A DNA stretch of 64,000 nucleotides from Saprospiraceae bacterium (GCA_031424115.1 JANPGW010000172.1:2561-66560), one strand, 5' to 3'; positions 1-63,332 are shown, numbered from the stretch's first letter. Numbers and translations: made by a program. The notes: generated by a model from the letters alone, not told the origin.

Positions 1-1902
1 GCTCGCGGACAAAACGGTACTTACATCGGGACGGTTGATGTGACCCGCACCGGAGCTGCCTATATCGTTTGTGAAGGGTTGGAAAATGATGTGTACGTCA
101 ATATGAAGTCCCTTAATGGTGCTTTACACGGTGATAAAGTCAAAATTGCGGCTTATTTCTCTAATCGCCGCCGTCCCGATGGCGAAGTATTGGAAGTATT
201 GGAACGGGCAACCGACCATTTCATTGGCACTTTTATGAATCAACGCCGTTTTGCTATTGTCATGCCCGACCGTATGGGGATGCCGGAAATATTTATCGAA
301 GAAGCAGATACTAAAGGTGCTCAGCACGGCGAAAAAGTTACAGTTAGGGTAACTAAATGGCTGAGTCGCGCCAATAAAAAATTAACCGGCGTTGTCACAA
401 CCGTTTTGGGTAAACCGGGTACAAGCGATATTGAAATGAAATCCATCTTAATAAATGGTGGTTTCAACATAGAGTTTCCCGACGATGTGTTGGCTGAAAC
501 GGCGAAAATCAAAGATGATATTGCCGCCGAAGTCTCTAAACGCCGCGATTTCAGGGATATCAATACGTTCACGATTGACCCGCACGATGCCAAAGACTTT
601 GATGATGCGCTGTCATACCGCGTTTTAGAGAATGGTAACACAGAAGTCGGTGTTCATATCGCTGATGTGACGCATTATATTTTCCCCAATACAGCCCTCG
701 ACAAAGAAGCATTTCTTCGCTCGACTTCCGTGTATTTAGTTGACCGTGTCTGCCCGATGTTGCCTGAAAGGCTATCAAATGAACTGTGTTCATTGCGTCC
801 CAATGAGGACAAATTGACTTTTTCGGCAGTTTTTACTTTCAATGATAAACATGAAATTGTCGATAAGTGGTTCGGAAAAACCATCATTCACTCTAATCGG
901 CGGTATGCTTATGAAGAGGCTCAGGCAATATTGGAAGCCGGTGAAGGAGACTTCGCTGATGAACTCATGAAACTCAATCAGATTGCCCATCATTTGCGCA
1001 AAAAACGCTTCAAAAATGGGGCAATCAATTTTGAAGTAGATGAAATCAAATTCAGATTGGATGAACACGGCGTGCCGATCGAGGTTTATGTCAAAGAGCG
1101 CAAAGACGCCCACTTGCTTATTGAGGATTTTATGCTTTTAGCCAATAAAGAAGTGGCAACCTACATGGCAAAAAAAGACCCCTCAGTAGAGGTGCCTTAT
1201 ACCTATCGGATTCACGATTTGCCGAATATGGATAAGCTTGAAAATTTCGCTCTTTTCGCCCGCGAAATGGGGGTGAAAATGAACTTGGATACGCCTAAAA
1301 ATATCGCCAAATCTTTTGATGACTTGATTAAAAAAGCGGAAAAAGACGAGGCCTTGAAAATATTGATGCCGCTAGCCATCAGAACGATGGCAAAAGCAGA
1401 GTATTCGACTAACAATATTGGGCACTATGGTTTGGCTTTCGAGTATTATAGCCATTTCACATCGCCAATTAGACGGTATTCAGACGTATTAGCGCATCGG
1501 ATTTTATTCGAAAATTTGAATAAAACCAAACGTTTTGAAAAAGAAAAACTGGAAGAGCAATGCAAATACATCTCTAAGCAAGAACGCAAAGCAGCTGAAG
1601 CAGAGCGTGAAAGCATCAAATACAAGCAGGTTGAATACATGAAAAAACACGTCGGCGATGAATTTGACGGTATTGTTTCGGGTATGCTTGACCGTGGTAT
1701 TTTTGTGGAGATAAAAGGTATGCTGGCTGAAGGCATGGTCACGTTTGACCGGATGGCAGAATCATTTGAAGTAGAAAGCTCTCGCTTGCGCGCGAAAGGA
1801 CTGCGCTCAGGAAAGATTTATAAAATGGGCGATCCGGTAAGAGTCAGAATTTTGAACGCCGACTTGGAGAAAAAACAAATTGAGATGGGATTGGCTGAAT
1901 AA
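1..1902 (+). CDS. rnr: Ribonuclease R (3'-5' exoribonuclease), 5' end cut by window edge
   Basis: Frame 1 is open from base 1, and the track ORF 40..1902 starts at an internal GTG. RNB-domain motifs DPHDAKDFDDA and HIADVTHY are present, with a C-terminal S1 domain (GIVSGMLDRGIFVEI). Confidence 0.9.
   Translation, partial: ARGQNGTYIGTVDVTRTGAAYIVCEGLENDVYVNMKSLNGALHGDKVKIAAYFSNRRRPDGEVLEVLERATDHFIGTFMNQRRFAIVMPDRMGMPEIFIEEADTKGAQHGEKVTVRVTKWLSRANKKLTGVVTTVLGKPGTSDIEMKSILINGGFNIEFPDDVLAETAKIKDDIAAEVSKRRDFRDINTFTIDPHDAKDFDDALSYRVLENGNTEVGVHIADVTHYIFPNTALDKEAFLRSTSVYLVDRVCPMLPERLSNELCSLRPNEDKLTFSAVFTFNDKHEIVDKWFGKTIIHSNRRYAYEEAQAILEAGEGDFADELMKLNQIAHHLRKKRFKNGAINFEVDEIKFRLDEHGVPIEVYVKERKDAHLLIEDFMLLANKEVATYMAKKDPSVEVPYTYRIHDLPNMDKLENFALFAREMGVKMNLDTPKNIAKSFDDLIKKAEKDEALKILMPLAIRTMAKAEYSTNNIGHYGLAFEYYSHFTSPIRRYSDVLAHRILFENLNKTKRFEKEKLEEQCKYISKQERKAAEAERESIKYKQVEYMKKHVGDEFDGIVSGMLDRGIFVEIKGMLAEGMVTFDRMAESFEVESSRLRAKGLRSGKIYKMGDPVRVRILNADLEKKQIEMGLAE
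1179..1188 (-). repeat. 10-nt core TACTGAGGGG of the abundant word (11th base C instead of A)
   Basis: + strand reads CCCCTCAGTAg. It lies inside rnr, and the sense frame reads P-S-V. Confidence 0.9.
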
Positions 1903-1988
1903 TGCACATTGAAATAAATTTCCCCAAACCGTCTTTTTAAATCCGCTAAAAGGGGAAATAAATCTACAAAATAATTAATTTTTGTGAA

Positions 1989-2027
1989 GCCTGAGAATTG
2001 AACATTCTTAGGCTTTGTCTTTTTTTG
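1989..2027 (+). terminator. Rho-independent terminator after rnr
   Basis: GCCTGAGAAT-tgaac-ATTCTTAGGC stem (one G-U pair) followed by a T-rich run TTTGTCTTTTTTTG. Confidence 0.6.
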
Positions 2028-2108
2028 CAAATTGGCAATGTTTTTTCATAGAAAGTCATGATTTATGTTTATTTTGCAAAACTTTACATATCGCACAAGA
2101 ATTATTGA

Positions 2109-5100
2109 ATGAATAGACTGTTACCGATTATTATTTTGCTTTGGTGGGCGGACGTAGTACAAGCGCAAAAAAACTACTTTCAACAGGAAACCAACTTTAA
2201 CATCAACGTCACTCTCGACGATGAAAAGCATGTGCTATCGGGCAACGAAACTATCGAATACATCAACCATTCACCGGATAAACTTACCTATATTTATTTT
2301 CATTTATGGAACAACGCCTACAGTAATAAAAATTCGGCTTTTGCCCAACAAGAGTTAAGGAATGGTAATATGCGTTTTTATTTTGCCGAAAATGATGAAA
2401 TGGGCGCAATAACGGATTTGGATTTTAAAGTAGACGGTCAAAAATGTGAGGTGGAAATTGACAAAGATAATCCTGATATTGCCAAACTTATCCTCTCCCA
2501 GCCACTCCAATCCGGTGCTAAAATCACCATCACAACACCTTTTAAAGTCAAAATTCCTTATACTTTCTCACGGGGCGGGCATGTCGGGCAACAATACTTG
2601 ATGACGCAATGGTTTCCCAAACCGGCAGTATATGATGCTGAAAAATGGCACCCGATGCCATATCTGAATCAAGGTGAATTTTATTCGGAATTTGGACATT
2701 TTGATGTAACTATGACGCTCCCTGAAAATTATATCGTTGGTGCAACGGGTATATTGCAAACACATTCAGAAAAAGAGTTTATCGACAATAGAACTCAGCA
2801 AGAAATAGGCGATTCAGTGCCGCCGTCTTCAAAACAAATGAAAACCATTCGTTTTACGGCTGAAAACGTCCACGATTTTGCTTGGTTTGCGGATAAAGCG
2901 TTCAACGTCAGAAAAAGTGAAGTCATTTTAAAAAATGGTAAAAAGGTAGAAACGTATGCATATTTCCGCCACAAATATCTTCAACAATGGCAAAAAGCAC
3001 CGGAATACGTCAATCGTGCCGTCCAATATTATTCTGACTTGGTAGGTGATTATCCGCATCCGCACGCTTCGACTGTCATGGCAGACGGGGGATATGCGGG
3101 TGGCATGGAATATCCGATGATAACAGTTTTGGCAGGAAGATTTTCGGATAAAGATTTGGACGTAACATTGGCTCATGAAGTAGGGCATAATTGGTTTCAA
3201 GGCATTTTAGGCAGTAATGAACGCGACCACGCTTGGATGGACGAAGGCATCAACTCGTATTATGACCATCGCTATACCGCTCAATTTTATCCCCGTACTG
3301 AGGGGTCTAATCCCGAAACCTCAGGGGGATATGGATTACCTAAATTTATTTCCAAAAATACAGATTACACGTTAGAAGAGATTGCATTACAGTATCAGGA
3401 TTTTAACCATAAAAATCAACCGATAGCAACCACCTCCAATGCCTTGACGCAGACCAATTATTTCATGAATGCTTACGAAAAACCCGCAAGGCTTCTGAAA
3501 ATATTAGAAAATTATTACGGTCAAAAGCGTTTTGATGATATTATGCAAGCTTATTATAACGGTTGGAAATTCAAACATCCGCAACCGACTGATTTCAGAA
3601 AACACTGGGAAATTGCCACGGGAGATGATTTTTCATGGCTTTTTGATGGGTTAATGAAAGAAGTAAAAGCAGTAGATTATAAAATTTCAGATATTAAAGA
3701 TAATGGTACAGAATGGTTATTGACCATCAATAATCTAAGTGGTGTGACAGTGCCTTTTGATATCAGTTGCTTAAAAAAAGGTGCAGTAGTATCTAAAAAA
3801 TCTTATAAAGGCATTGACAAACAACAAGTTATACAAATCTCAAAAGGAGATTTTGACCTTATTGCTTTAGATAACAATCATCTGTTGCCCGACCTAAATC
3901 GCGCCAACAACTACGCCCGAACAAAGGGAAAGGGGTCAACAGCTTTGCCTTGGGAAATGACTTTTTTAGGAGGCATTGACAATTCAAAGAAAAACACTGT
4001 GTATTGGTCACCTGCGGTAGGAATCAATAAATATGACGGGGCATTGGTAGGATTACTTTTACATAATGGGTTTGTTCCACAAAAAAAATGGAGCTGGGCA
4101 ATCGCACCCTTTTATGGTGCTAATTCGAGAAATCTAACCGGCGTTGTAGATATTGATTATAGTTTTTTTAATAAAAATCATAAAATCACGTTGAGTGCGG
4201 GGGGAAAACGCTTTAGTTTTGCCAAGAAGCCCAATAAAAACTTTTTAACCTACACCCGTATATCTCCCTCCGTGACAATAGATTTTTGGAAAAGACCTTT
4301 AAGCCAATTCACCCAGAGTTTGTCTATTCGCCATTTATCTATCAATGAAGAAAATCTTTTACAAGACACCATTGAGAGAATTTCCATCAAAAATAGACTA
4401 TCCAACAGCAGCGAAATCAGCTATTCAGGCACTATTAAGAATGGTTTAACTCCTACAAGTTTTAGGTTATGCGTAGAAAATTATCGCTATCAGGTTTTTG
4501 AAAAGCGACAAAAATTCATTAAAACGACCTTCGAACTGTCTCAGGATTATATGTATCGGGAAAACAGAAAATTTTCCGCCCGATTGTTTATCGGCGGTTT
4601 TCCGGTCAATTCTGGGCGCAATTCCGGATTTGGTTTCACAAGAGGCTTTTTGGGCTTATCTGCTCGGGGTTTTGCAGACTACCGCTACGAAGATTATTAC
4701 TTTGGTAGAAATGAATCTAAGGGCTTTGCCTCACAACAAATCGCGTCCAATACTGAGGGGGGGCTAAAATTTACTTTACCGGAAGGGGAAGAGACCCGAA
4801 TCGGATACAGCAATAATTTTGTCGCTTCGCTGAATTTGAAAGCACAATTGCCTTTCAAATTTCCTTTAGATATTAAGCCCTATTTTGACATTGGCTTTTT
4901 CAGCGATACCCGCCCGGGTGGAGAGCGCACAACGTCTCAATGGCTTATGAGCGGTGGCTTGGCTTGGGAAGTGAACGATTACTTAGGGGTTTACGTTCCA
5001 CTTTATTTTTCCGGCAAAAAAGATGACCCCAACAGTTTTCAATCCATTATGACAAGGCGCGGTGGTTTTTTATCTCGCATCACTTTCAGTATCAATATGA

Positions 5101-5199: not shown

Positions 5200-8082
5200 C
5201 TATAACTTTTCTTTCACAAAATATCCTGTCAAAGATTTCTCTTCTTTGGCTAAACCTTCAGGCGTCCCTTGAAAAACCAGATGCCCTCCGTTTTTGCCAC
5301 CTTCGGGACCCAAATCAATCACCCAATCAGCTGACTTAATCACTTCCATGTTGTGCTCAACTACCAACACTGAATGCCCTTTTTCAACCAAAGCGTTCAA
5401 AGCATCTAAGAGTTTTTTAATGTCGTGAAAATGCAAACCGGTGGTGGGTTCATCAAAAATGAAAAAAATGTGATCTTTATTCCCTTCTTTCCCAAGGAAA
5501 GAGGCTAATTTAATCCTTTGTGCTTCGCCACCGGATAGGGTTGAACTCGACTGTCCCAACTGAACATAGCCTAACCCCACATCATTCAGCGGTTTTAATT
5601 TTTGAACAATGCCTTTGTCTTCCTTGAAAAAATCAAGGGCTTCTTCAACACTCATTTGCAAGACTTCAAAAATATTTTTACCCATGTAAGTCACATCTAA
5701 AGTTTCTGCTTTAAACCGTTTGCCATGACATTCTTCACATTCTAAACGCACATCTGCGAGGAATTGCATTTCCACAATTTGCTCGCCTTCCCCTTTACAA
5801 GTTTCACAACGCCCCCCCTCAGTATTGAAAGAAAAAATACCGGGTTTATAACCTCTGATTTTGGATAGTTGCTGTTTGGAAAACAAATCCCGAATTTCAT
5901 CATAGGCTTTGACATACGTCACGGGATTGGAACGCGACGATTTACCGATGGGTGACTGATTAATCATCTCGATACCCGATAGTCGCTTGATATCGCCTTC
6001 CAAGCCGTCAAAATGTCCCGGCACGGTGGAAGCTGTCGGGTCAATTTCACGCTGTAAGGCAGGATATAAAATCTGTTTCACCAAAGTCGTCTTGCCACTG
6101 CCCGACACACCGCTCACAACCGTCATCGTATTGAGTGGAATTTTGACCGAAACATTCTTCAAATTGTGTTGCCTTGCCCCTTTTACTTCAAGCCAATGAA
6201 CACCCTTACGGCGTACGGAGGGGGTCGGAATTTGAAGGCTTCCGTTCATGTAGCGTGTGGTAAGGCTTTGTTTGGCATCACTGAAAATCTTTTCATAAGC
6301 CCCGGCAAACACCACTTCGCCGCCGTGAATACCCGCTTCGGGACCCATATCAATCAAATAATCGGCATTTTTTATAATATCTTCCTCATGTTCCACTACC
6401 ACAACCGTGTTGCCCAAATCTCGCAAAGCCTTCAAAACAGTGACCAAACGCCCCGTATCGCGCGGATGTAAGCCCACACTCGGTTCATCCAAAATGTACA
6501 TCGAACTGGTCAAATTAGAGCCTAAAGTACGAGTCAAATTGATGCGTTGAGTCTCGCCACCACTCAATGTCGAACTGATACGGCTCAGCGTCAAATAGCC
6601 CAGACCGACATTTATCATAAAATGCAAACGGTTGGTGATTTCTAAAATCAATCTCTTGCCTACTTGCAAATCACTCTCTGATAAATGAATAGTATCGAAA
6701 AAAGCGGAAACTTCGTCAATCGGAATATCTACCAACTCCGTGATATTTTTACTGCTCATTTTTACATAAGTCGCTTCCTGCCGCAAACGACCGCCCTCAC
6801 AGGTGGGACAAGCCGTACGCCCGCGATAGCGCGCCAACATAACCCGGTTCTGAATTTTATACGTTTGCTCTTCGAGCATGGAGAAAAAACGATTGATACC
6901 CTCAAAATAGGCATTGCCATTCCAGAGCAGTTTGCGTTCATCTTTGGTCAAATCTTGATAAGCCCGATGAACGGGAAAATCAAATTTATGAGCTGCCCGT
7001 AAAAAAGCATCTTGCCATTCACTCGATTTCTCGCCTTTCCAACAGGCAACAGCACCCTCAAAAACCGAAAGTGTTTTATTCGGAATCACTTTATCCTCGT
7101 CAATACCCATCACTTTGCCGTATCCTTCGCAGGTTGGGCAAGCACCATAGGGATTGTTATAATTGAACAGTTGTGGAGACGGGTCTAAAAACACTACCCC
7201 GTCTAACTCAAATCTATTGTTAAAATGCCGCGTTTCACCGCCCATAATTTCCAATATGGCTTCCCCTTCCGATTCGTAAAAAGCAGTTTGAACGGAGTCC
7301 GCTATTCGTTTTATATTTTCAGAAGGCTCGTCGATATTATCAAAATCTTCTTTTTTCAACACAAAGCGATCAATCAAAATGCGCAAATCAGCCTCTTTGA
7401 ACTTATCCACGGTTTGCGTCAAATCCAAGTCCGCTTCAACACCTTTATCACTAAAAATATCTTCAATTTGTATTAATTGCCCCTCCTTCCAAAGGCGGGT
7501 ATAGCCTTTTTGCAATAATAGATTAAGTTCCGCTTCTAAAGTGCGATCATTGTATTTCGTCGGTAAAGGGATAAACAGGAGTACTTTATCTTCTTCTTTT
7601 TGTTGGATGATAAAATCCACTACATCAGAAACCTGATGTCTTTTAACCACATCTCCAGAAATAGGGGAAATGGTTTTACCAATTCTGGCGTATAAAAGTC
7701 TTAAAAAATCATACACTTCCGTCATGGAACCAACTGTCGAGCGGTTATTGCCCGTTGTTACTTTTTGCTCAATGGCGATAGCGGGGCAGATGCCTTTGAT
7801 ATAATCCACATCCGGTTTTTTCATCCGCATCAAAAATTGCCGCGCATAACTTGATAGACTCTCCACATATCGGCGTTGCCCTTCAGCAAAGAGCGTATCC
7901 ATAGTAATAGATGACTTACCACTGCCCGAAACACCCGTAACGACGACGAGTTGGTTTTTAGGTATAGTTAAATCAATATTTTTCAGATTGTTACTTCTCG
8001 CACCTTTGATGAAAATAACATTCTCGCCCTCTCTCGCTTGCCCATTTTGAGGTTTTTTTAAATCTTTTACAGCCATTAACAT
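5200..8082 (-). CDS. uvrA: Excinuclease ABC subunit A
   Basis: 960 aa with two ABC ATPase modules (GVSGSGKS twice, LSGGE twice) and CxxC zinc-finger pairs. Confidence 0.95.
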   Translation of the reverse strand: MLMAVKDLKKPQNGQAREGENVIFIKGARSNNLKNIDLTIPKNQLVVVTGVSGSGKSSITMDTLFAEGQRRYVESLSSYARQFLMRMKKPDVDYIKGICPAIAIEQKVTTGNNRSTVGSMTEVYDFLRLLYARIGKTISPISGDVVKRHQVSDVVDFIIQQKEEDKVLLFIPLPTKYNDRTLEAELNLLLQKGYTRLWKEGQLIQIEDIFSDKGVEADLDLTQTVDKFKEADLRILIDRFVLKKEDFDNIDEPSENIKRIADSVQTAFYESEGEAILEIMGGETRHFNNRFELDGVVFLDPSPQLFNYNNPYGACPTCEGYGKVMGIDEDKVIPNKTLSVFEGAVACWKGEKSSEWQDAFLRAAHKFDFPVHRAYQDLTKDERKLLWNGNAYFEGINRFFSMLEEQTYKIQNRVMLARYRGRTACPTCEGGRLRQEATYVKMSSKNITELVDIPIDEVSAFFDTIHLSESDLQVGKRLILEITNRLHFMINVGLGYLTLSRISSTLSGGETQRINLTRTLGSNLTSSMYILDEPSVGLHPRDTGRLVTVLKALRDLGNTVVVVEHEEDIIKNADYLIDMGPEAGIHGGEVVFAGAYEKIFSDAKQSLTTRYMNGSLQIPTPSVRRKGVHWLEVKGARQHNLKNVSVKIPLNTMTVVSGVSGSGKTTLVKQILYPALQREIDPTASTVPGHFDGLEGDIKRLSGIEMINQSPIGKSSRSNPVTYVKAYDEIRDLFSKQQLSKIRGYKPGIFSFNTEGGRCETCKGEGEQIVEMQFLADVRLECEECHGKRFKAETLDVTYMGKNIFEVLQMSVEEALDFFKEDKGIVQKLKPLNDVGLGYVQLGQSSSTLSGGEAQRIKLASFLGKEGNKDHIFFIFDEPTTGLHFHDIKKLLDALNALVEKGHSVLVVEHNMEVIKSADWVIDLGPEGGKNGGHLVFQGTPEGLAKEEKSLTGYFVKEKL
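5815..5825 (-). repeat. ATACTGAGGGG exact copy
   Basis: Inside uvrA. The sense frame reads N-T-E-G-G. G-tract 7. Confidence 0.95.
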
Positions 8083-8365: not shown

Positions 8366-8797
8366 TCAAACTCCCAAATCCAACGCTCCCAAATACCCAT
8401 CCTCTTTTTCTCTCATCTCCGTCTCTTCCTCATCCGTTTCATCACTATATCCGCACAAATGCAAAACGCCGTGAATCATCACGCGATGTAGTTCAGCCTG
8501 AAAAGAGACACCCAAATCTTCAGCATTGTCTTTCACACGGTCTATACTGATAAAAATATCGCCTTCAATAGGGTCGTCGTTGTATGGAAAAGTAATGACA
8601 TCGGTCAAAGTATCATGTTCGAGGTATTCGACATTCATTTGGTGAAGATAATCATCGCTGCAAAAAATGTAGCTGATTGTACCGAGTTCATACCCTTCTG
8701 ACTCAATCGCTTTTTCAATCCATATACTGAGGGGCTCTTCATCGGCCAACTGAAAATCAATGTCTTCGACGTTGTATATTATTTTAATGTCTTCCAT
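8366..8797 (-). CDS. ybeY: rRNA maturation endoribonuclease YbeY
   Basis: 143 aa with the HRVMIHGVLHLCGY histidine triad. Confidence 0.9.
   Translation of the reverse strand: MEDIKIIYNVEDIDFQLADEEPLSIWIEKAIESEGYELGTISYIFCSDDYLHQMNVEYLEHDTLTDVITFPYNDDPIEGDIFISIDRVKDNAEDLGVSFQAELHRVMIHGVLHLCGYSDETDEEETEMREKEDGYLGALDLGV
8724..8734 (+). repeat. ATACTGAGGGG exact copy
   Basis: Inside ybeY (- strand). The gene sense reads P-L-S-I. Confidence 0.95.
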
Positions 8798-9272: not shown

Positions 9273-9818
9273 TTATTTTTTCTTCTTCTTTTCGGTCTGT
9301 CCCTTTTCCGTTGCTAAATCTCTCTTCATCCCTTTGTCCACAATTTTTAAAGCAATATTGTTGATACCTGCCAATGACTCCACACGCATATATTGCTCAA
9401 GCGTAATGGTATGTAAACCGTTGGCATTAAAAAAAGCATTCGGTTGAATCGGAATTTCAAATACACATTCCGAGCCGCTGCAATTGCCAGCCCATTTGCC
9501 CGTATTATCTGCCAAATCAATATTAAGTTGCTGCTTAATACGTTCGCCCGAAGGGAATTTTGTGTAGATATTGGTATAAATATTTTGCATCGGATACTGA
9601 GGGGTATGCTTTATGGTCAAGACGATGTCATAAATCTCCATCGTATCGGCAATATTGAAAGCAAAATCTAAAGTGTCGGCATACGTCCATTGCCCGTTTT
9701 TAAGGTCGTATTTTTTCTCGAAAATAATCTTCTCTTTACCACACGAGACAAAAGCGATACTGAGTGGGAGGGCTAAAAGTATAAAAAAAAGGCGTTTTAT
9801 TAAATTCACGTTATTCAT
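9273..9818 (-). CDS. gldH: Gliding-motility lipoprotein GldH-like
   Basis: Signal peptide with lipobox (FVSCGK). Size and sequence pattern are typical of GldH. The call rests on recognition only. Confidence 0.55.
   Translation of the reverse strand: MNNVNLIKRLFFILLALPLSIAFVSCGKEKIIFEKKYDLKNGQWTYADTLDFAFNIADTMEIYDIVLTIKHTPQYPMQNIYTNIYTKFPSGERIKQQLNIDLADNTGKWAGNCSGSECVFEIPIQPNAFFNANGLHTITLEQYMRVESLAGINNIALKIVDKGMKRDLATEKGQTEKKKKK
9594..9604 (+). repeat. ATACTGAGGGG exact copy
   Basis: Inside the gldH-like gene (-). The gene sense reads P-Q-Y. It is followed by TAT, giving ATAC-N6-GTAT. Confidence 0.95.
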
Positions 9819-11146: not shown

Positions 11147-11707
11147 TTACTTACCAACAACAACTTTTGCAAAACGAATAATTTTATCACTGAGTAAATA
11201 TCCTTTTTCTAAAGTATCTACAACTTTTCCTACCAGTTCATCACCAGCCGGCACTTCGGTAATAGCTTCGTGCTGGTCAGGGTCAAAATCAGAACCCGGC
11301 GGCGTTTCCATCTCTTTCAAGCCTTTGCTTTTGAGTGTAGAAATAAGTTTTAACCACACTAAATTGACCCCCTCAGTAAATTGCTCATTTTTTGACGCCC
11401 TGTCAAAATCGTCTAAAACGGGTAAAAGTGCTGTCAAAGTGTCACGCGAAGCCAGCGCAATCACTTCTGCTTTTTCCTTCATCGTCCGCTTTCTGAAATT
11501 ATCAAACTCAGCTTGTTGATAAAGCATTTTATTTTTCAAGTCGCTAACTTGCTCTTGCAAAGCCAACATTTCCTTTTTAAAATCCTCGGTAACAGCAGCT
11601 TCAGCGTTATTTCCGGTTGCCTCGATTGTCTCGTCTTGCATCAAATCTTCGTTTTGAAATGCATCTTTATTTTCCATACGCTTGTTTTTAAACCATTTTT
11701 TAAACAT
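11147..11707 (-). CDS. grpE: Nucleotide exchange factor GrpE
   Basis: 186 aa GrpE-like sequence directly upstream of dnaJ. Confidence 0.9.
   Translation of the reverse strand: MFKKWFKNKRMENKDAFQNEDLMQDETIEATGNNAEAAVTEDFKKEMLALQEQVSDLKNKMLYQQAEFDNFRKRTMKEKAEVIALASRDTLTALLPVLDDFDRASKNEQFTEGVNLVWLKLISTLKSKGLKEMETPPGSDFDPDQHEAITEVPAGDELVGKVVDTLEKGYLLSDKIIRFAKVVVGK
11369..11378 (-). repeat. 10-nt core TACTGAGGGG (preceded by T)
   Basis: Inside grpE. The sense frame reads T-E-G. Confidence 0.9.
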
Positions 11708-12424: not shown

Positions 12425-12958
12425 TTATTGTAACTTACTTGTCAAAACTTTTTCAATGTCTTTCAAAGATTGGTTGACGCCAATTATCACCCCCTCAGTA
12501 TTCAAAAGAAATTTAGTTGGAATCACTCTAACGCCATATTGTTTGGCAATGGGAGAATCCAGATTCTTAAAATCTGAAATATGGAATCGCCAAGTCATAT
12601 TGTACCGCTGAATCGCTGATAGCCAACGATCTTTGTCGCTTTCGATACCCACGCTAACAATTTCGAAACCTTTGGCGTCTTTGAAGTTCTTGCCATGAAA
12701 TGAATCGTATACATATTTCAAATCCGGCGCTTCCGCAAGGCAAGGTGCGCACCAACTACCCCAAAAATCCAATAATACATATTGTCCTTTCAGGTCTGAT
12801 AATTTCATAGCTGAACCATCGGGCATCATACCTGTAAAATCGGGCGCATCGGCTCCGTTGATATACTTTGGCTGCTTGTAAAAATATTTGCCTATAAAAT
12901 ATATGACAATCAAGGCTAAGACAATCCAACTCCAATTTTTCCTAATCGTTTCCATCAT
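12425..12958 (-). CDS. TlpA/ResA-like thiol:disulfide oxidoreductase (thioredoxin fold), membrane anchored
   Basis: N-terminal TM helix and a WCAPC active site. Confidence 0.8.
   Translation of the reverse strand: MMETIRKNWSWIVLALIVIYFIGKYFYKQPKYINGADAPDFTGMMPDGSAMKLSDLKGQYVLLDFWGSWCAPCLAEAPDLKYVYDSFHGKNFKDAKGFEIVSVGIESDKDRWLSAIQRYNMTWRFHISDFKNLDSPIAKQYGVRVIPTKFLLNTEGVIIGVNQSLKDIEKVLTSKLQ
12491..12501 (-). repeat. ATACTGAGGGG exact copy
   Basis: Inside the TlpA-like gene. The sense frame reads N-T-E-G. Confidence 0.95.
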
Positions 12959-47558: not shown

Positions 47559-47569
47559 CCCCTCAGTAT
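47559..47569 (-). repeat. ATACTGAGGGG exact copy
   Basis: Intergenic, between the cupin gene and the GMC oxidoreductase gene. Confidence 0.95.
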
Positions 47570-50749: not shown

Positions 50750-50774
50750 TGATAAAGTAGTAAAAAAATGTATA

Positions 50775-51347
50775 ATGAAATTTAACAAAAAACACGCTTG
50801 GATAGGTGAAATAACCGCAGTGTTGCGCGCTGAAAAAAAAGGTACATTAGAGAGTATAGCTTATCATACTTTAGAATTTGCGGACGGCGGCATAGTAGAC
50901 GATAAGCATTTTGGTTTCACGACAAAATCCACGGTTAGAGAATTAAGTCTCTATCCTCGGGGTACAATTATCCGGAATAATAGGCAATGGTCAGCCGTCA
51001 GTGAAGAAGAATTAAACGGTATTTCAGCCAAAATGGGTATTGATAATATCCATTCGGGGTGGATTGGAGCTAATTTATTGGTAAAAGGCATTCCTAATTT
51101 CACCCAACTACCCCCCCTCAGTATGTTGACGATTCGACCTGATGCCGCTGATAAAGTGGTATTGATGGTTTATGGCGATAATAAACCTTGCAAATTCGCT
51201 CACGAAAAAATTGTTGAAAAATTAGGAATCGAACCCTCTCAGAGTTTTGTAAAGGCTGCATTAGGACAACGTGGTCTGGTGGGTTGGATTGAAAAAGGCG
51301 GAAAAATATCCGTTGGCGATACAATTGCGGTCACACTTCCTCTTTAG
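50775..51347 (+). CDS. MOSC-domain-like protein (tentative)
   Basis: 190 aa from the ATG at 50775; the track ORF starts upstream at 50697 and overlaps the GNAT gene. The resemblance to the MOSC beta-barrel (...NKPCKF..., GDTIAV) is loose. Confidence 0.5.
   Translation: MKFNKKHAWIGEITAVLRAEKKGTLESIAYHTLEFADGGIVDDKHFGFTTKSTVRELSLYPRGTIIRNNRQWSAVSEEELNGISAKMGIDNIHSGWIGANLLVKGIPNFTQLPPLSMLTIRPDAADKVVLMVYGDNKPCKFAHEKIVEKLGIEPSQSFVKAALGQRGLVGWIEKGGKISVGDTIAVTLPL
51114..51124 (-). repeat. ATACTGAGGGG exact copy
   Basis: Inside the MOSC-like gene (+). The gene sense reads P-P-L-S-M. C-tract 7. Confidence 0.95.
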
Positions 51348-51392
51348 ATTTATAACAGCCAGATTACTACAGCCATATGTTAGAGCATCTGA

Positions 51393-51427
51393 AAGGGGTT
51401 TTGACTTTTACTAAATCTAAACCCCTT
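51393..51427. terminator. Hairpin between convergent genes
   Basis: AAGGGGTTT / AAACCCCTT 9-bp stem with a 17-nt loop. Confidence 0.45.
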
Positions 51428-51441
51428 GATAATTGTTGTTT

Positions 51442-52992
51442 TTAATCTAATTTAAGCACCTTTCGGGGCAATAATCCATCCCTTTGCGCCGTATGCCATA
51501 TAAAAGAAGCGATGATGGTAGCTGCTTGTTTCAAATCACTTTCTATCAAATGATCCCAGGTGTCCATATTAGAATGGTGGGTTCGGGTAGAATATTCGAT
51601 TGGGTCTTGAATAAATTGGAATGCCGGAATACCCGCCGCATCAAATGACTGATGGTCTGTACCACCTGTATTAGAAATTGACAAAGTGCTGGCTTGAAGG
51701 TCTTTAAAAGGGTCTAACCAACTTCTAAAAATGGGTCTCACCGCCTCATTATCTTGCAGATAAACGCCTCTTATTTTCCCGGTTCCGTTATCTAAATTGT
51801 AGTAGGCCGAAATTTTCGCTTGTTCCGGTTTGATGGATTGGACAGTGCGACCTTTTACATCAGCAAAATGTTGTCCCACATAGCCCATTGAGCCTAAAAG
51901 CCCTTGTTCCTCACCTGTCCACAGAGCCATTCTTAAAGTTCGCCGTGGTTGAATACCTGATTCTTTTATCATTGCCGTCAAAATACGGGCTGCTTCCATC
52001 ATCACAGCTGAGCCGGCGGCATTGTCCGTTGCACCGGTAGCAGACTGCCAAGAATCGAGATGCGCGCCAAACATCACGACTTCATCTTTCAAGTCGGTGC
52101 CGGGTATTTCAGCAATGACATTGTGTTCCAGTTTATCAGGATTGGTATAGTTAGCTTTCAAGTCCAAACTCAATTTGACTGGAATCCCTTTCTGAGATAA
52201 TCTGAATATTCTATTGTATTGTTCAACGGAAATTGTCACTTGCGGCAATATCTCTGCCCCTTCATCTCTTGCTGAGCCTTCTTTAGCTTGAGCACCGGAA
52301 ATAAAAACGGTACCGTCATCTCCTTTGAAACTGCGGTCAAGTGTGGCTAAAGGTTTTTCTTCGTACAGCATTTTTCTCATGGCTTTGCTAAACTCGCTGT
52401 CGCCAAAGCCAAAAGTCCGCAATGTGCGGGGTGTCGGTTTAGGCGCATTGGCTAATTCCAAAAGGGAAGAATCGGCAAACCTTTTGGCAGATGACTCAAA
52501 CCCTGGTTTGACAACGCGAATAGTATCCAATAAAATGAATTTACCACCCAATTTGCCTTTATATTGTGCCAATTCTTCAATTGTATTGGCTTTAAAATAA
52601 ACCACTTCGCCGGTTAAAGTCCCTTTTGTAGAAGGAGACCATACTTTGGGATAACCCAAAATGGGGAAATATGAAGGCTCAATGGCGTGTAATTCAAAAT
52701 GCTGCAATTCCCAGCCTCTACCAAAAGGACCCCACGCTTCGGTATGAACATTTTGTAACCCCCAATTAGTGAGTTGCTCTTGTGCCCATTTAGTGGCTTT
52801 ATCCAACATTGGTGAACCCGTCACACGAGGGCCATAAACATCGGTTAGGTAAAAAGCTGTTTCCATGACTTGGCTTTGTTCCATACCGTGTTTGCGGATG
52901 AGTTTATTTATTTTTTCGTCCGGCGTGTCTTGTGCTAAATTTACGTTGATGATAAAAGAAAAGAGAAGACCCGTAAAGAGTAATTTTTTCAT
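51442..52992 (-). CDS. M28 family aminopeptidase with PA-like insert
   Basis: Signal peptide and M28 zinc-site context (GAHLDSW, DNAAGSA, WTGEEQGLLGS, HHSNMD). Confidence 0.8.
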   Translation of the reverse strand: MKKLLFTGLLFSFIINVNLAQDTPDEKINKLIRKHGMEQSQVMETAFYLTDVYGPRVTGSPMLDKATKWAQEQLTNWGLQNVHTEAWGPFGRGWELQHFELHAIEPSYFPILGYPKVWSPSTKGTLTGEVVYFKANTIEELAQYKGKLGGKFILLDTIRVVKPGFESSAKRFADSSLLELANAPKPTPRTLRTFGFGDSEFSKAMRKMLYEEKPLATLDRSFKGDDGTVFISGAQAKEGSARDEGAEILPQVTISVEQYNRIFRLSQKGIPVKLSLDLKANYTNPDKLEHNVIAEIPGTDLKDEVVMFGAHLDSWQSATGATDNAAGSAVMMEAARILTAMIKESGIQPRRTLRMALWTGEEQGLLGSMGYVGQHFADVKGRTVQSIKPEQAKISAYYNLDNGTGKIRGVYLQDNEAVRPIFRSWLDPFKDLQASTLSISNTGGTDHQSFDAAGIPAFQFIQDPIEYSTRTHHSNMDTWDHLIESDLKQAATIIASFIWHTAQRDGLLPRKVLKLD

Positions 52993-53028: not shown

Positions 53029-54453
53029 TCAATATTGAATTTTTACTAATTTTACCTTGCGCCTATCATCACTCGGAACAATGACTTCATTTGCGGATAC
53101 CTGCATAGCGTCCCTAAATCGAAGATTGATATCTTGCCCGTCTGTGTTCATAATGGCATGTCGTTCAGATTGCCCTGTCCCATTGACTACATATTCGCTC
53201 ACCGTAGTGGAGCGTTCAATTTCGTCATTAAATAAAAAACGCAAAGCAGATGGTGTTTTGACTAAAAAATAAGAGCAATACCGCGCATCATCGTCCTGCG
53301 ACGCTTGTTTTTTGAAAAAAATGGATTTCCATTGGGTTACACCCTCAGGCGAAAGCGAAATGGCAAATATGTTTTCGTAAAAATAGTCAACTGAAACCCT
53401 CATCCCATCGCCTCTCATATAAAGTCGGCTACTGGCTGTCGTCATTTGCCGTTCCACCTCTTTGACTTGTTCGATGATAGCAAGAATGCCACCATCTCTG
53501 CGGTGGACAATTTCCTGAATGCTCAAGTCAGCTATGCCCTTATTATCCATGATTTTCTTTCCGAATAAATTCGACACAAATTCATCATCAAATGATTGAT
53601 AATAGAATTTATAGGCGTTATACTGAGGGGGTATACTCAACAGGAAATATCCCAATGCCTTGAACGAATTTTTAGTTGCGTACAATCCCGCTGCGGTCAT
53701 CCGTTGATTAATATTATCATATTTGAACTTGATAGAAGCATTGGTGTATTCAGGCATCGGAATTTCAAAGGTTTTATCTCCTTCCTGACTGATTTGTTTG
53801 ATATTAAAACGATGTTTCTCAACAGAACCCCATCTATTATCTTCTTCTTCAATAAAGAATGCTTCTGCATTGTTATTGATAAGCACTTGTCGATAATTGT
53901 TGTCAAAAACAGTGTTTTTAGAATCAAAAGATTTATACCAAATCGGGCTTAAGGAGTCAAGACTAATGGCTAAAGCATTAATTTTATTAGTGCTTTCCAC
54001 TTCGTAAACCAGTATGATTTTTTTATCTTCCGAAAAGGTGGTTTGATAAGTGGGCGTCACCATATTGCGCCCCCAATCCTTGACTATTGCAGAGTCAAGC
54101 AATTTGACTTGCGCATCATATTTATGAACTTTTATAAAGTTATGCCCTTTGCGTCTGAATTGGTAAACGACATTGAAATCTTGCCTATTCCCCAATACTT
54201 CTAATACTTTTGAGCTGTTTTTACGATCCGGTTCAATGTCTTTTTCCCAAATTTTATGGAGTTTAGCGTCAAAAGATTTTAGTTTTACCTTGTTATCATC
54301 GAGGTTAAAAAAAAGGATGCGTTCATTATATTTTCCAATAATGCCATACCCTTCAGAAGTACCAATGTTGATATCATCAGATATTTCGGTTATTTGAGCT
54401 TTTAATAAAAATATATTGTGTACAAACAATAGAAGTATTACCAGTTTTTTCAT
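53029..54453 (-). CDS. Hypothetical secreted protein
   Basis: Signal peptide and a clean 474 aa ORF. No family recognised. Confidence 0.5.
   Translation of the reverse strand: MKKLVILLLFVHNIFLLKAQITEISDDINIGTSEGYGIIGKYNERILFFNLDDNKVKLKSFDAKLHKIWEKDIEPDRKNSSKVLEVLGNRQDFNVVYQFRRKGHNFIKVHKYDAQVKLLDSAIVKDWGRNMVTPTYQTTFSEDKKIILVYEVESTNKINALAISLDSLSPIWYKSFDSKNTVFDNNYRQVLINNNAEAFFIEEEDNRWGSVEKHRFNIKQISQEGDKTFEIPMPEYTNASIKFKYDNINQRMTAAGLYATKNSFKALGYFLLSIPPQYNAYKFYYQSFDDEFVSNLFGKKIMDNKGIADLSIQEIVHRRDGGILAIIEQVKEVERQMTTASSRLYMRGDGMRVSVDYFYENIFAISLSPEGVTQWKSIFFKKQASQDDDARYCSYFLVKTPSALRFLFNDEIERSTTVSEYVVNGTGQSERHAIMNTDGQDINLRFRDAMQVSANEVIVPSDDRRKVKLVKIQY
53620..53630 (+). repeat. ATACTGAGGGG exact copy
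   Basis: Inside the hypothetical gene (-). The gene sense reads P-P-Q-Y. Local context is TATACTGAGGGGGTATA. Confidence 0.95.
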
Positions 54454-55525: not shown

Positions 55526-55536
55526 CCCCTCAGTAT
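55526..55536 (-). repeat. ATACTGAGGGG exact copy
   Basis: Intergenic, in the divergent CBS / VanX-like region. It has the palindromic extension ATACCCCTCAGTAT. Confidence 0.95.
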
Positions 55537-57675: not shown

Positions 57676-58305
57676 TTACCCTTGTACGTAAACAACTGCT
57701 TTTTCTTCAAAATAGGAGACTTTGAAAAATTTGGTTATTTGACTGACATCTGTGTAATGCCCTTTTCCCAACGTTTTAATCTCTTCCTTCATATTGCCGC
57801 CTTTTAATGCTAGCAAACCATTGGGTAAAGCATGAACCTGCTGTTTTTTGATTAAAAAGAAACTCCACTGTACCAATTTATCAAGGCTTGCAACAGCTCT
57901 TGTGACCACAAAATCGAACTTTCTGTTTTTAATTTCCTCGGCTCTGATATGTTTAGCTTCCACATTTTTTAAACCTAAAGCAGCCGCTATTTCCTGAACA
58001 ACCTTAATTTTTTTCCCAATACTATCCACAAGGAGGAAAGATACTGAGGGGTATAAAATTGCTAAAGGAATACCCGGAAAACCACCGCCGGTGCCCAAAT
58101 CCAAAATGTCAGCACCCTCTTTAAATGCTACAATTTTGGCTATCGCGAGAGAATGTAACACATGATGTATATACATATTATCAATATCTTTTCTGGAAAT
58201 GACGTTGATTTTTTCATTCCATTCTTTGTAAAGCGGCAACAGTTGTTCAAATTGTTGCTTTTGAACATCGGTTAGATGCGGAAAATATTTTAAAATTTCA
58301 TTCAT
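57676..58305 (-). CDS. rsmG: 16S rRNA (guanine527-N7)-methyltransferase
   Basis: 209 aa with LDLGTGGGFPGIPLAI and RAVA motifs. Confidence 0.9.
   Translation of the reverse strand: MNEILKYFPHLTDVQKQQFEQLLPLYKEWNEKINVISRKDIDNMYIHHVLHSLAIAKIVAFKEGADILDLGTGGGFPGIPLAILYPSVSFLLVDSIGKKIKVVQEIAAALGLKNVEAKHIRAEEIKNRKFDFVVTRAVASLDKLVQWSFFLIKKQQVHALPNGLLALKGGNMKEEIKTLGKGHYTDVSQITKFFKVSYFEEKAVVYVQG
58041..58051 (+). repeat. ATACTGAGGGG exact copy
   Basis: Inside rsmG (-). The gene sense reads P-S-V. It is followed by TAT. Confidence 0.95.
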
Positions 58306-58819: not shown

Positions 58820-59899
58820 CAGTTCTTCGTCTAAAAGAATAAAATTAGCCTCGTACCCTTTCGCTATTTTCCCCAATCTGTTATCTAAGCCCATAACACG
58901 TGCTGGATATACCGAAGCCATGCGCAAGGCTTCTTCAAGTGGTATGCCTACCTTTTCAACACAATTTCTCACTGCCTTTACCATGGTCAAAGCCGAACCA
59001 GAAAGAGTACCGTCGGCAATCACATATTTATCTCCTTGCAATCGGTGACTATATAAGCCATTAAGGTTTTCAGTTACAGCATCCGTAATTAAGAACATTC
59101 GTTCTAATAGTACCTTTTTACTAATGCCGATGACAGAAAAATCCACATGGTGGCCATCAGCAACGACGCTTGTTGTGATTTTATCATCATCAAAAATAGC
59201 CCCTACTACTCCTGGTGCTCGATGCCGTAAAGGAGACATAGCGTTAAAAAGGTGAGTAGCGGCATGAATACCCTTTTCGACAGCCAATTTTGCTTGTTCA
59301 TAAGTCGCGTTGGTATGTCCCATGGAAATAGTCACACCGTAGTCTTGAAGCAATGAAATGACATCATCGCTGACGACTTCAGGCGCGAGGGTCATCATTT
59401 TTATCACATCTTTACCCGCGTCAAGCAGCTTTTTTACGTCCGATACTGAGGGGTCATTTTTTATGAACTGCTTAAGGTGCGCACCTCTTTTTTCCATATT
59501 TATATATGGTCCCTCAAGATGAAGACCTAAAACGCCTTTGCCGCCTTGCTGCCAATAATCTTTCACCGCTTGAATGGCATCGTGCATGGTTTTATCAGAA
59601 TTGGTCGCCACTGTCGGCATAAAATACCCTGCACCACCAGAAAGACAATAATGATATGTGTTTTCAAGATTTTGGACAGATGGGTACTCACCGAACATCT
59701 CACCATTACCACCATATATCTGGAGATCAATTAGAGTTGGCGCTAATAGTTTGCCTTTCAAATCAATCAAAGATGCAATTGAAGGTATATCTGAGTCTTC
59801 AATAATGTCTAAAATCGTATTCCCTTCTGTCAAGACACAACTATTTTCTACTATTTCATCGCCCGTAAAAATACGACCATTGTGGTATGCTGTTATCAT
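58811..59899 (-). CDS. nagA: N-acetylglucosamine-6-phosphate deacetylase
   Basis: Amidohydrolase fold with HLEGPY, GHTNAT and THLFNAM motifs. Confidence 0.85.
   Translation of the reverse strand: MITAYHNGRIFTGDEIVENSCVLTEGNTILDIIEDSDIPSIASLIDLKGKLLAPTLIDLQIYGGNGEMFGEYPSVQNLENTYHYCLSGGAGYFMPTVATNSDKTMHDAIQAVKDYWQQGGKGVLGLHLEGPYINMEKRGAHLKQFIKNDPSVSDVKKLLDAGKDVIKMMTLAPEVVSDDVISLLQDYGVTISMGHTNATYEQAKLAVEKGIHAATHLFNAMSPLRHRAPGVVGAIFDDDKITTSVVADGHHVDFSVIGISKKVLLERMFLITDAVTENLNGLYSHRLQGDKYVIADGTLSGSALTMVKAVRNCVEKVGIPLEEALRMASVYPARVMGLDNRLGKIAKGYEANFILLDEELNC
59443..59453 (+). repeat. ATACTGAGGGG exact copy
   Basis: Inside nagA (-). The gene sense reads P-S-V. Confidence 0.95.
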
Positions 59900-59978: not shown

Positions 59979-60596
59979 TTAAGTTGTGAATACTGAGGGG
60001 GGCGAAAATTCTACATTAAAATAAATTTCATCAATATTTAATTCAAAAGGATGCGTTTTCAACTTCAAAACACCTTCTGAAACCACTTCACCGATTTCCC
60101 ATTTCCCATTTTCATTTTTATAAAATTGCTCAATATTCTTACGGTCTTGAGAAATCAAAATATATTCTTTAAAAGTTGAAATATTGCGGTACGATTTAAA
60201 TTTATCGCTTCTATCAAATTTTTCCGTAGAATCAGATAATACTTCAACTATCAAACTTGGATTGACCAAAATATCTTGCTGTTCGTCATCAAAAATTGCC
60301 CGCCCTTCTACAATTTCTACGTCTGGATAAAAGTAGTTTTTATTAGGAATATGGCTAATTGTCCGCATATCTTGGGCATAAATCAAATGGTTAGTTCGAT
60401 TTTGACGCATTTGAAGATTGAAAACAAAACATACATTTGATGTTATTAAGTTGTGATTATTTGATGCTCCGGGCATAAAAATGAGTTGGTTATTATAAAA
60501 TTCATGTTTACCAATTTTTTCTCGCAGCCCTTCCCGTTCCATTTTAAGGTAATCTTCGGCAGTTATTTTCCTTTTATTTACTATGGCTGTTGTCAT
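59979..60596 (-). CDS. Uma2 (DUF820) family endonuclease-fold protein
   Basis: 205 aa with a pattern typical of Uma2 (YLKMERE...HE....L..MPGAS..H, PD.E.V, VEVLS.S). Confidence 0.75.
   Translation of the reverse strand: MTTAIVNKRKITAEDYLKMEREGLREKIGKHEFYNNQLIFMPGASNNHNLITSNVCFVFNLQMRQNRTNHLIYAQDMRTISHIPNKNYFYPDVEIVEGRAIFDDEQQDILVNPSLIVEVLSDSTEKFDRSDKFKSYRNISTFKEYILISQDRKNIEQFYKNENGKWEIGEVVSEGVLKLKTHPFELNIDEIYFNVEFSPPSVFTT
59990..60000 (+). repeat. ATACTGAGGGG exact copy
   Basis: Inside the Uma2 gene (-), four codons before its stop. The gene sense reads P-P-S-V. Confidence 0.95.
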
Positions 60597-61789: not shown

Positions 61790-61917
61790 GTTCTGTATAA
61801 TTGAAAATGGATAATGGATAGTGGATTTTACTTTACGTTTTAAAAAATTTGAACCCAAAATGAGCATTTTTCAGAAAAAATACCCAAATTTGTAAAAGCA
61901 AACAAAACGACCAGACT

Positions 61918-62103
61918 ATGAGCGAACAAGAACGTAACGAACATGAAAAACAATTAGCCTTAGTTTTTCAGCAATTACATTTATCTGTTATTTATGAAAG
62001 TTCCTTTTTGCAAACACTCTCAAAACAAGAACTCAATAATTTTCGAGATACGTGTTTAGACAAAATCATTTTCTTTCAAAAAAAAATTGGAATAAGACAA
62101 TGA
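61918..62103 (+). CDS. Small helical protein, unknown function (N-terminal half of a split paralogue)
   Basis: 61 aa. It aligns with residues ~1-65 of the ORF 63422..63928 (ESSFL..LSKQEL..R..LDKII versus EESFL..MSKREL..R..LDKII). Its stop overlaps the next start (ATGA at 62100). Confidence 0.45.
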   Translation: MSEQERNEHEKQLALVFQQLHLSVIYESSFLQTLSKQELNNFRDTCLDKIIFFQKKIGIRQ

Positions 62104-62387
62104 CTCAATTAGAAAAAATAAAACTTTCAGAATTGCTTACTGAATTACAAAATATGTATTCGGACGAAAATATGCACTCTTTTGCTGCTAAATGGTTTCC
62201 TTTCGTTAATAATTTGAATAAAGAAGATGCTTCTATAGCGAACCAAGCATATTTCAATATTGTATCGGATAATATTCAGTCATTAGGAGATTTAGCATTA
62301 ACTGCGACGTCAAAAGAAGATAAACAATTTTGGAAAGAAGCATTTAGTCAATTGCTTTCATTAAAATGCTACCGACTTCAACCTTAA
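62100..62387 (+). CDS. Small helical protein, unknown function (C-terminal half of a split paralogue)
   Basis: 95 aa from the ATG at 62100. It aligns with residues ~67-168 of ORF 63422..63928 (KI.L..L...Q.M..EN...FAA.W..F.N.LN..D..IA.QAYF). Its 3' end overlaps the argC 3' end by 27 nt, convergently. Confidence 0.45.
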   Translation: MTQLEKIKLSELLTELQNMYSDENMHSFAAKWFPFVNNLNKEDASIANQAYFNIVSDNIQSLGDLALTATSKEDKQFWKEAFSQLLSLKCYRLQP

Positions 62388-63332
62388 CCCCTCAGTCTGC
62401 GGCAATCCAAACATCAAATTCATATTCTCAACGGCTTGTCCGCTGGCGCCTTTTAGTAAATTGTCTATCATACTGATTATCAATGCTTTATCGCCGTGTT
62501 TTGAAACATGAATAATGGCTTTATTAGAGTTTACCACTTGTTTCAAATTCGGATTTTGCTCAGTGACGTGCGTAAAAGGTTCATCTTTATAAAACTCTTG
62601 ATACAGTTTTTTCAAATCATCTTCACACAAGCTCGTTTTTGTATAAACGCTTGCGTAAATGCCCCTTGTAAAATTACCACGCACTGGTAAGAAATTGATT
62701 TCAGCATTAAAACCTTCTTGTAATGATTTCACACTCGCTGTAATTTCTTTTAAGTGACGGTGTTTGAATGCTTCATAAATCGAAATATTATTATTTCTCC
62801 AACTGAAATGTGAAGTATCCGTTGGCTTCTGTCCTGCACCCGTTGAACCCGTAATGGCATGAACATGGACATCATCATTCAACAAACCTTGCGCGGCCAA
62901 TGGTAAAACAGCCAATTGAATAGCCGTTGCGAAACAGCCTGGATTCGCTACATATTGAGCCGTTTTGGTAGCTTCTTTATTCAATTCAGTCAAACCATAC
63001 ACCCAAGTGGTATCAGGATTGGCACCCCAACGATAATCTTGAGATAAATCAATGATTTTCAAAGATTGAGGTAAGTCCGTTTGGTCAACAAATTTCCTTG
63101 CATCACCGTGACCCACACACAGGAAAATCACATCTACGGCTTCATAATCCGCTTTATCTGTGAAAGTCAAGTCTGTTTCACCTATCAAATCAGTGTGTAC
63201 ATTACTCAATAAATTGCCCGCATTGGATGTAGAATGCACAAATTGTATTTTTACTGAGGGGTGGTTCAAAAGGATGCGTAACAACTCACCTGCTGTATAT
63301 CCTGCGCCACCTATTATTCCTACGTTTATCAT
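62361..63332 (-). CDS. argC: N-acetyl-gamma-glutamyl-phosphate reductase
   Basis: 323 aa with GGAGYTAGELLR NAD motif and the NPGCFAT catalytic cysteine. Confidence 0.9.
   Translation of the reverse strand: MINVGIIGGAGYTAGELLRILLNHPSVKIQFVHSTSNAGNLLSNVHTDLIGETDLTFTDKADYEAVDVIFLCVGHGDARKFVDQTDLPQSLKIIDLSQDYRWGANPDTTWVYGLTELNKEATKTAQYVANPGCFATAIQLAVLPLAAQGLLNDDVHVHAITGSTGAGQKPTDTSHFSWRNNNISIYEAFKHRHLKEITASVKSLQEGFNAEINFLPVRGNFTRGIYASVYTKTSLCEDDLKKLYQEFYKDEPFTHVTEQNPNLKQVVNSNKAIIHVSKHGDKALIISMIDNLLKGASGQAVENMNLMFGLPQTEGLRLKSVAF
63252..63261 (+). repeat. 10-nt core TACTGAGGGG (preceded by T)
   Basis: Inside argC (-). The gene sense reads P-S-V. Confidence 0.9.

Follow-up and report, generated by a model that had tools for sequence, protein, structure and literature searches.

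The 64,000-nucleotide (nt) stretch of Saprospiraceae bacterium DNA considered here (GCA_031424115.1 JANPGW010000172.1:2561-66560; the whole stretch is called the window below) raises the question of why one short, asymmetric DNA word recurs throughout it and what process keeps it there. The word, with the 10-mer core TACTGAGGGG, is confined to one narrow, genus-level clade of uncultured Saprospiraceae and to temperate phages of that clade, where there is about one copy per 1-2 kb. The word is real, its occurrence is far from random, and its behaviour, judged at the level of sequence, matches that of a DNA uptake sequence (DUS), in a phylum new for such signals.

The core occurs 34 times in the window, 15 times on the plus and 19 times on the minus strand, and the 11-mer ATACTGAGGGG 30 times. 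Dinucleotide-preserving shuffles predicted 0.04 and 0.00 copies, respectively, and for the 9-mer ACTGAGGGG the 37 copies seen compare with 0.26 predicted by an order-3 Markov model. No further non-trivial k-mer came near the abundance of the core in a k-mer count of the window. In the aligned copies, the flanking 25 nt in both directions are almost without information, with the exception of A at position -1 (30 of 34 copies) and G or T at position +11 (29 of 34), and a weak GTTA preference upstream; the copies are therefore not pieces of a longer repeat. All counts and coordinates given by the initial annotation were reproduced, as was its observation that the flanks are unrelated apart from a G or T after the word, to which the A at -1 is added; the Markov expectation, a comparison it had called for, is exceeded by far. 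One-mismatch variants of the 10-mer are about ten-fold enriched (12 against 1.2 expected). One of them, TACAGAGGGG (46856-46865, plus strand), is a perfect copy at the orthologous position of a close relative, contig L193, and thus represents a decayed or a nascent site; the other 11 start at 4980, 6214, 9758, 14077, 24801, 32253, 33753, 40612, 41704, 56240 and 62388. Chance and assembly or adaptor artefacts were ruled out, as independent assemblies from five sources (NCBI, ENA, JGI, Logan and IMG/VR) agree on the word and the copies are in frame.

Long start-to-stop open reading frames contain 30 of the 34 copies and stop-to-stop frames 31, the latter in line with the 31 first assigned to coding sequences. 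Such a proportion is about that expected from a coding density of 90%, so genes are neither enriched nor depleted for the word. Of the sense frames, the two without an in-frame TGA are used (encoding the tripeptides TEG and LRG), and so are all three antisense frames (PSV, PQY and PLS). By stop-to-stop frames, the window has 14 sense and 17 antisense copies; seven host loci together have 48 sense, 38 antisense and 18 intergenic ones. The use of five frames on either gene strand indicates a DNA-level word. A protein motif is ruled out by the five frames and both strands, and an RNA element by the equal sense and antisense use.

The copies are spaced evenly. Gaps in the window range from 534 to 4062 nt (mean 1881), with a coefficient of variation of 0.47 against 0.97 for random placement, and fewer than one in 10,000 simulations were as regular (P ≤ 1e-4); a minimum gap of at least 534 nt has a probability of 2e-5 under random placement. 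Each of the seven host loci tested likewise had a coefficient of variation below 1. The order of orientations along the window is random (15:19, with 18 runs against 17.7 expected), so that the word has no polarity at this local scale.

Comparison of orthologous sites points to the origin of the copies. In a codon-level alignment of mfd (72-77% nucleotide identity), the word stands in the same columns in the window and in three other loci, L001, L002 and L030 (loci and contigs are designated by L numbers); the site comparisons in this gene took in 4-25 genomes. The copy that encodes the C-terminal EILRG (40995-41005, minus strand, sense) is orthologous in L001, L002, L030, L193 and L201, and the one in the linker (LRG; 43428-43438, minus strand, sense) in L001, L002 and L193. 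A third, antisense to APQY (43961-43971, plus strand), is orthologous in L001 and L002 and has a one-base variant in L193. The fourth shared site reads TTGCTGAAAGG in the window, by point changes and with no indel. At the word columns, mismatches number 2-9 (mostly 4-8) in 20-odd outgroups, which encode other residues there, e.g., VAPKVL or VAPEAL against VAPQYL in the clade, and AMLRRL against LLRGL. All word sites in mfd fall at variable positions of the protein, and those in the M1 peptidase gene do likewise.

The nearest relative tells the same story at shorter range. Of the sites compared between the window and the syntenic L193 (87% nucleotide identity), five are common to both, two show a single-base difference and one a difference of three bases; all others fall in indels. 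Apart from the two mfd copies mentioned, copies common to both lie in genes for a TonB-dependent receptor (45041-45051, minus strand, antisense), a GMC oxidoreductase (48962-48972, plus strand, sense) and gluconate 2-dehydrogenase subunit 3 (49984-49994, minus strand, antisense); the site with three mismatches in L193 is antisense in a gene for an unknown protein of 474 amino acids (53620-53630, plus strand). The outgroup mismatches and the point differences at orthologous columns indicate that the word is created by substitution; it prevails over neutral protein drift and is retained thereafter. Whether relatives carry it at the same codons had been put forward as a check by the initial annotation, and in mfd they do so across species.

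Two segments of the window are missing from L193, namely a cupin gene with intergenic DNA (46991-47590) and a MOSC gene (50751-51446). Each holds one copy, intergenic in the former (47559-47569, minus strand) and antisense to the gene in the latter (51114-51124, minus strand).

Another feature of mfd is the 12-mer TCCCGAAACCTC (43411-43422, minus strand), 5 nt past the linker copy. It belongs to an in-frame insertion of 18-21 nt flanked by GGGG, which is specific to the window; the insertion is missing from L001, L002 and the 98%-identical Mfd of L193 and is therefore recent. The same 12-mer is found at the same offset from an M1 peptidase copy (3311-3322, plus strand), and occurs nowhere else in the clade loci. 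Possibly, the insertion was templated and anchored at the word.

To delimit the distribution of the word, a genome scan with Mfd was made, which gave 80 species-level loci, and further contigs were fetched along the gradient of Mfd identity. Only the three nearest of the 80 loci (78-86% Mfd identity) contain the word, at 0.6-1.2 copies per kb, and the remaining 77 have zero copies. Along the gradient, we counted 7 copies in 13.8 kb of L193 (Mfd 98% identical to that of the window), 15 in 22.5 kb of L195 (87%), 24 in 23.4 kb of L189 (77%), 23 in 23.4 kb of L200 (76%) and 16 in 18.5 kb of L201 (75%), and none in L190 and L202 (both 73%) or L191 and L192 (both 70%). Altogether, the nine host loci with an Mfd at least 75% identical to that of the window have 0.5-1.2 copies per kb, and lineages at 73% or below have none. 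Seven clade host loci comprise 104 copies in 153 kb, to which L200 and L201 add 39 in 42 kb; the non-clade controls contain 1 copy in 166 loci (2.61 Mb). Relatives found by a metagenome scan with the M1 peptidase had 45% identity or less throughout and served solely as negative controls. No substitute word exists in the sister lineages.

One sub-lineage, L200 and L201, uses a longer dialect, ATACTGAGGGGTCC (14 of 16 copies in L201), also inside mfd. Many of their copies form inverted pairs in perfect 80-nt palindromes, AAAAAAGGGACCCCTCAGTATAAACG...CGTTTATACTGAGGGGTCCCTTTTTT, which are intergenic and directly downstream of genes. These hairpins are flanked by A- and T-runs, with predicted energies of -50 to -70 kcal/mol; the copies share the word-bearing outer stem alone, their inner stems being different. 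Pairs are located at 3752-3832 and 10122-10204 in L201, at 8337-8413 in L200 and, in a simpler intergenic form, at 1905-1945 in L001, and occur also in phage L101 described below; none exists in the window itself. On these predictions, the inverted pairs are terminator-like hairpins. The intragenic mfd copies of L201 have the dialect without a palindrome. The test of whether copies sit inside a longer repeat thus had a divided outcome: the window copies do not, whereas many in L200 and L201 lie within palindromic terminator-like elements, which the initial annotation had not anticipated.

Scans of viral contigs for the hairpin pattern returned unrelated hairpins with only the two copies in 18 of 20 matches of one orientation and two of three of the other, and revealed two word-rich viruses. 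L101, which has 22 copies in 21.6 kb, is a Mu-like myovirus whose genes include those for terminase, portal, protease, major head, sheath, tape-measure and baseplate proteins; L199, a phage unrelated to it that encodes an integrase and a tape-measure protein, has 16 copies in 19 kb. These densities of 0.84-1.02 copies per kb are equal to or above those of the hosts. Phages with terminases 47-65% identical to that of L101 have zero copies. An apparent second word in L101, CATACTTCA, proved to be a heptamer tandem repeat.

How does the word compare with those already described? To our knowledge, DNA uptake sequences are known from two proteobacterial families only. The DUS of Neisseriaceae (GCCGTCTGAA and its dialects) is bound by the minor pilin ComP. 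Dialects are reportedly documented for it, and both DUS and the uptake signal sequences (USS) of Pasteurellaceae are said to coevolve with proteomes, their sites being in permissive regions and themselves conserved. Like the DUS, the present word is non-palindromic, 10-12 nt long, present about once per kb on both strands and lineage-specific with dialects; its orthologous sites are strictly conserved in permissive regions, its spacing is on the presumed scale of recombination tracts, and it forms inverted pairs in predicted terminators. Neisserial DUS are conserved within permissive regions, spaced at about the size of conversion tracts and found as inverted pairs in terminators (PMC2397512). 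Unlike the DUS, the word has an unrelated sequence, belongs to the phylum Bacteroidota, is intragenic in about 85-90% of its window copies, and is not known to go with a competence phenotype, a type IV pilus or a ComP-like receptor. With USS of the Hin and Apl types it shares a mostly intragenic location in several frames, the imposition of particular tripeptides, even spacing, clade-specific variants, and accumulation in temperate phages of the host clade (Mu-like included) and not in unrelated phages. Temperate phages of Pasteurellaceae, Mu-like ones among them, accumulate USS, which mark host association (PMC6776037). It differs from USS by the lack of evident AT-rich flanking segments, by its G-rich core of 10-14 nt and by its host, an uncultured freshwater bacterium of glacier-fed streams.

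Two other kinds of abundant word are less similar. HIP1 (GCGATCGC) is a hyper-abundant short intragenic word of cyanobacteria that is maintained at the DNA level without an established mechanism. It is a palindrome tied to methyltransferase sites and occurs phylum-wide, whereas TACTGAGGGG differs from its own reverse complement and is limited to a genus-level clade. Chi and KOPS/AIMS are short (5-8 nt), G-rich, over-represented words read by DNA-processing motors, modestly enriched and strongly co-oriented with replication; in contrast, the enrichment here exceeds 100-fold and the local orientation is random. Within Bacteroidota, natural competence exists in Riemerella species, with R. columbina showing a preference for its own DNA, and k-mer counting in Riemerella gave no specific word, only A/T-rich low-complexity ones (PMC7965970). 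Our literature search found no report of a specific word for Bacteroidota, in accordance with what the initial annotation had supposed, and the word itself matched only polymerase chain reaction primers.

Overall, the word has the sequence traits of DUS and USS in its abundance, clade limit and dialects, substitution sites at orthologous positions, even spacing, terminator pairs and phage accumulation. Together with the five frames and the imposed residues, these traits strongly support the original suggestion of a DUS-like word maintained by a DNA-level process. In this lineage, nothing that the initial annotation had named as refuting was seen: local polarity and conserved flanks are absent, and the word recurs in independent assemblies. 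As the best-supported reading, we consider it somewhat probable (roughly 0.55) that W-TACTGAGGGG-K serves as a lineage-specific tag of self-DNA, a signal for uptake or transfer of the DUS/USS type, and has accumulated by biased uptake and homologous recombination. Cells of the clade would take up, or otherwise receive, word-bearing DNA fragments preferentially, and homologous recombination of such fragments would turn near-matches into perfect copies and repair decayed ones. The word would build up by molecular drive, possibly aided by selection for conspecific exchange, until roughly every recombination-sized fragment of 1-2 kb had one copy. Copies would settle where proteins tolerate the encoded tripeptides, inverted pairs would be co-opted as terminator stems, and temperate phages resident in these hosts would gain the word through the same process.

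Several points weigh against an uptake signal. Every feature described follows from any DNA-level drive or selection acting on all resident DNA, and none is specific to uptake. No comEC, dprA, comF, pilus, secretin or other competence gene is among the annotated genes of the 64-kb window. No receptor candidate emerged either. A prepilin-motif regular expression run over 3 Mb of loci, itself uninformative, gave nothing. As for natural competence of these uncultured bacteria, known from metagenomes, no literature report for Saprospiraceae was found. In the phages the word is no scarcer than in their hosts, which fits long co-residence and equally a benefit to the phage. Orientation is uneven in two host loci, with 17 plus and 7 minus copies in L189 and a 5:10 split in L195. 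Moreover, the onset is abrupt, with full density at 75% Mfd identity, nil at 73% and no intermediate density.

Among other explanations, it is possible, if on balance unlikely, that the word is the footprint of an undescribed sequence-specific system that was gained by one genus and that introduces or protects the word in all resident DNA, be it chromosomal or prophage. One form of such a system would be a drive by guided gene conversion or nick repair, another a self mark read by a nuclease or defence system; its gain would then be dated by the jump between sister lineages from zero copies to about 1 per kb. With a probability that we regard as low, the copies are selected binding sites of a clade-specific protein, serving either a nucleoid organiser that requires one site per 1-2 kb or as a 'self' mark by which a nuclease or defence system is stopped or diverted. 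Regular spacing and strict conservation are what an array of functional sites should exhibit, the word is also found within the accessory, defence-like genes of L189, and the phages, with their density at or above that of the hosts, would gain from a self mark. On the other hand, known self-marks and architecture words such as Chi and KOPS have 5-8 nt, are few-fold enriched and strongly polar, in contrast to the random orientation here; the phage accumulation is fully explained by the USS precedent, terminator pairs and dialects are traits of DUS and USS, and no candidate protein is known.

Slightly less probable again is a DNA-level drive that does not involve uptake, in which biased mismatch correction, or site-specific nicking and gene conversion of near-matches, creates the copies, a problem akin to that of HIP1. 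The ten-fold enrichment of near-matches and their single-base differences from perfect copies at orthologous sites would suit it, as would the presence of the word in all resident DNA, two unrelated temperate phages included, an onset as abrupt as if one enzyme had been gained, and the lineage-specific, templated-looking insertion that adjoins one copy. However, it is not evident why a purely mutational process should space copies evenly and leave no window gap below 500 nt; the word is non-palindromic, unlike HIP1, and no candidate enzyme was seen in the window. Furthermore, we know of no repair system that makes a non-palindromic word of 10-14 nt at a more than 100-fold excess. The idea that the copies are pieces of a dispersed palindromic element resembling repetitive extragenic palindromes or miniature inverted-repeat transposable elements (MITEs), or of a terminator family, draws on the many L200 and L201 copies in 80-nt intergenic palindromes and on the weak GTTA preference upstream of window copies. 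We hold it to be very improbable, as 30-31 of the 34 window copies are single and intragenic with uninformative flanks, orthologous comparison reveals point substitutions and not insertions, the inner stems of L200 and L201 differ, and the intragenic L201 mfd copies have the dialect without a palindrome. For the window lineage, a MITE origin was ruled out by the uninformative flanks and the substitutions at orthologous sites.

The window is an ordinary piece of chromosome, with genes for RNase R, UvrA, DnaJ/GrpE, HflX, SmpB, IscS/NifU, Lnt, Mfd and GldH, and it also encodes a CHU_C (type IX secretion) protein. Relatives of its Mfd place it in Saprospiraceae, the nearest sequences being from glacier-fed-stream metagenomes. 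Rfam and tRNA scans of the window detected no RNA genes, and no DNA-modification gene was found within its 64 kb. It encodes two paralogous inward-rectifier-type potassium channels (IRK_C and ion-channel domains) within 5 kb (34690-35622 and 39901-40959, both plus strand).

Besides the copies located above, the following lie in genes in the sense direction: two in the M1 peptidase gene, both encoding TEG (3296-3305, plus strand, core only, with TCCCGAAACCTC at +5; and 4750-4760, plus strand, where outgroups have R-EGG), and one each in uvrA (5815-5825, minus), grpE (11369-11378, minus, core only) and the genes for a redoxin (12491-12501, minus), a carbonic anhydrase (15547-15557, minus, LRG), a BlaR1/TonB_C protein (17691-17701, minus), a methyltransferase (23722-23732, minus), a PIG-L family protein (32401-32411, minus, LRG) and PTPS (39798-39808, plus, LRG). 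Antisense copies are those in the RNase R gene (1179-1188, minus, core only), ybeY (8724-8734, plus), gldH (9594-9604, plus), lnt (37941-37951, minus), rsmG, also known as GidB (58041-58051, plus), and the genes for HupE/UreJ (21025-21035, plus), a PolB-like exonuclease (29987-29997, minus), a PIG-L family protein (33233-33243, plus), a DUF1684 protein (34472-34482, plus), a NagA-like amidohydrolase (59443-59453, plus), a Uma2-family protein (59990-60000, plus, 12 nt ahead of the stop) and a semialdehyde dehydrogenase (63252-63261, plus, core only). Three more are intergenic, all on the minus strand: 19909-19919, between hflX and a DUF6702 gene; 25925-25935, 8 nt past the stop of an SDR gene; and 55526-55536. 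Copies often extend into longer G tracts, up to G8, and ATACTGAGGGGGGG occurs six times in the window; examples are 4750-4763, 5812-5825, 23719-23732, 25919-25935, 49981-49994 and 51111-51124. Being mostly intragenic, these tracts could be slippage-prone coding homopolymers.

Outside the window, the DNA adjoining mfd in L189 (14705-23025) encodes two large LRR-Roc-COR-EAD11 proteins (a defence-like STAND/GTPase architecture), a ParE toxin and a YhcG-type nuclease. These genes hold the word at normal density, so that accessory-looking genes are not depleted of it.

Heptanucleotide tandem repeats recur in these Saprospiraceae contigs and in their phages and imitate abundant words in k-mer counts; they are (CATACYT)n, (ATTACGA)n, which forms inverted arrays, and (AACTCAT)n, present some 16 times. 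They are located in L101 (1-165), L190 (520-560), L202 (3340-3415), L191 (one array) and L106 (5752-19250). ATTACGAAT, which in the 73% sister lineage looked like a replacement for the word, was rejected as a heptamer tandem repeat in inverted arrays, and frequent k-mers in L006, L041, L053 and L059 as local or protein-domain repeats. Possible words of lower density exist elsewhere in Bacteroidota. ACTGTAACA is found seven times in 13.9 kb of L035 (139-8834), with unrelated flanks and an uncorrected Markov P of about 9e-9 that becomes marginal once multiple testing is considered, and four times in L122; ATAATCGCC, likewise with unrelated flanks and marginal after multiple testing, is found seven times in 23 kb of L006 (4976-23343) and three times in L118.

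How uptake specificity arises is a long-standing question, and the phenomenon would prove general if another phylum offered a third case, independent of the two known. The word would be useful in this respect for having a sequence unrelated to DUS and USS, one sister lineage without it and another sub-lineage with a longer dialect. Its sharp phylogenetic onset suggests that the responsible machinery can be found, and comparing clades across the 75%/73% Mfd boundary should lead directly to the receptor. Should the word prove to be something other than an uptake signal, the system behind it would be even more unusual. For the Saprospiraceae of stream biofilms, it provides a natural bar-code that links phages in metagenomes to their uncultured hosts.

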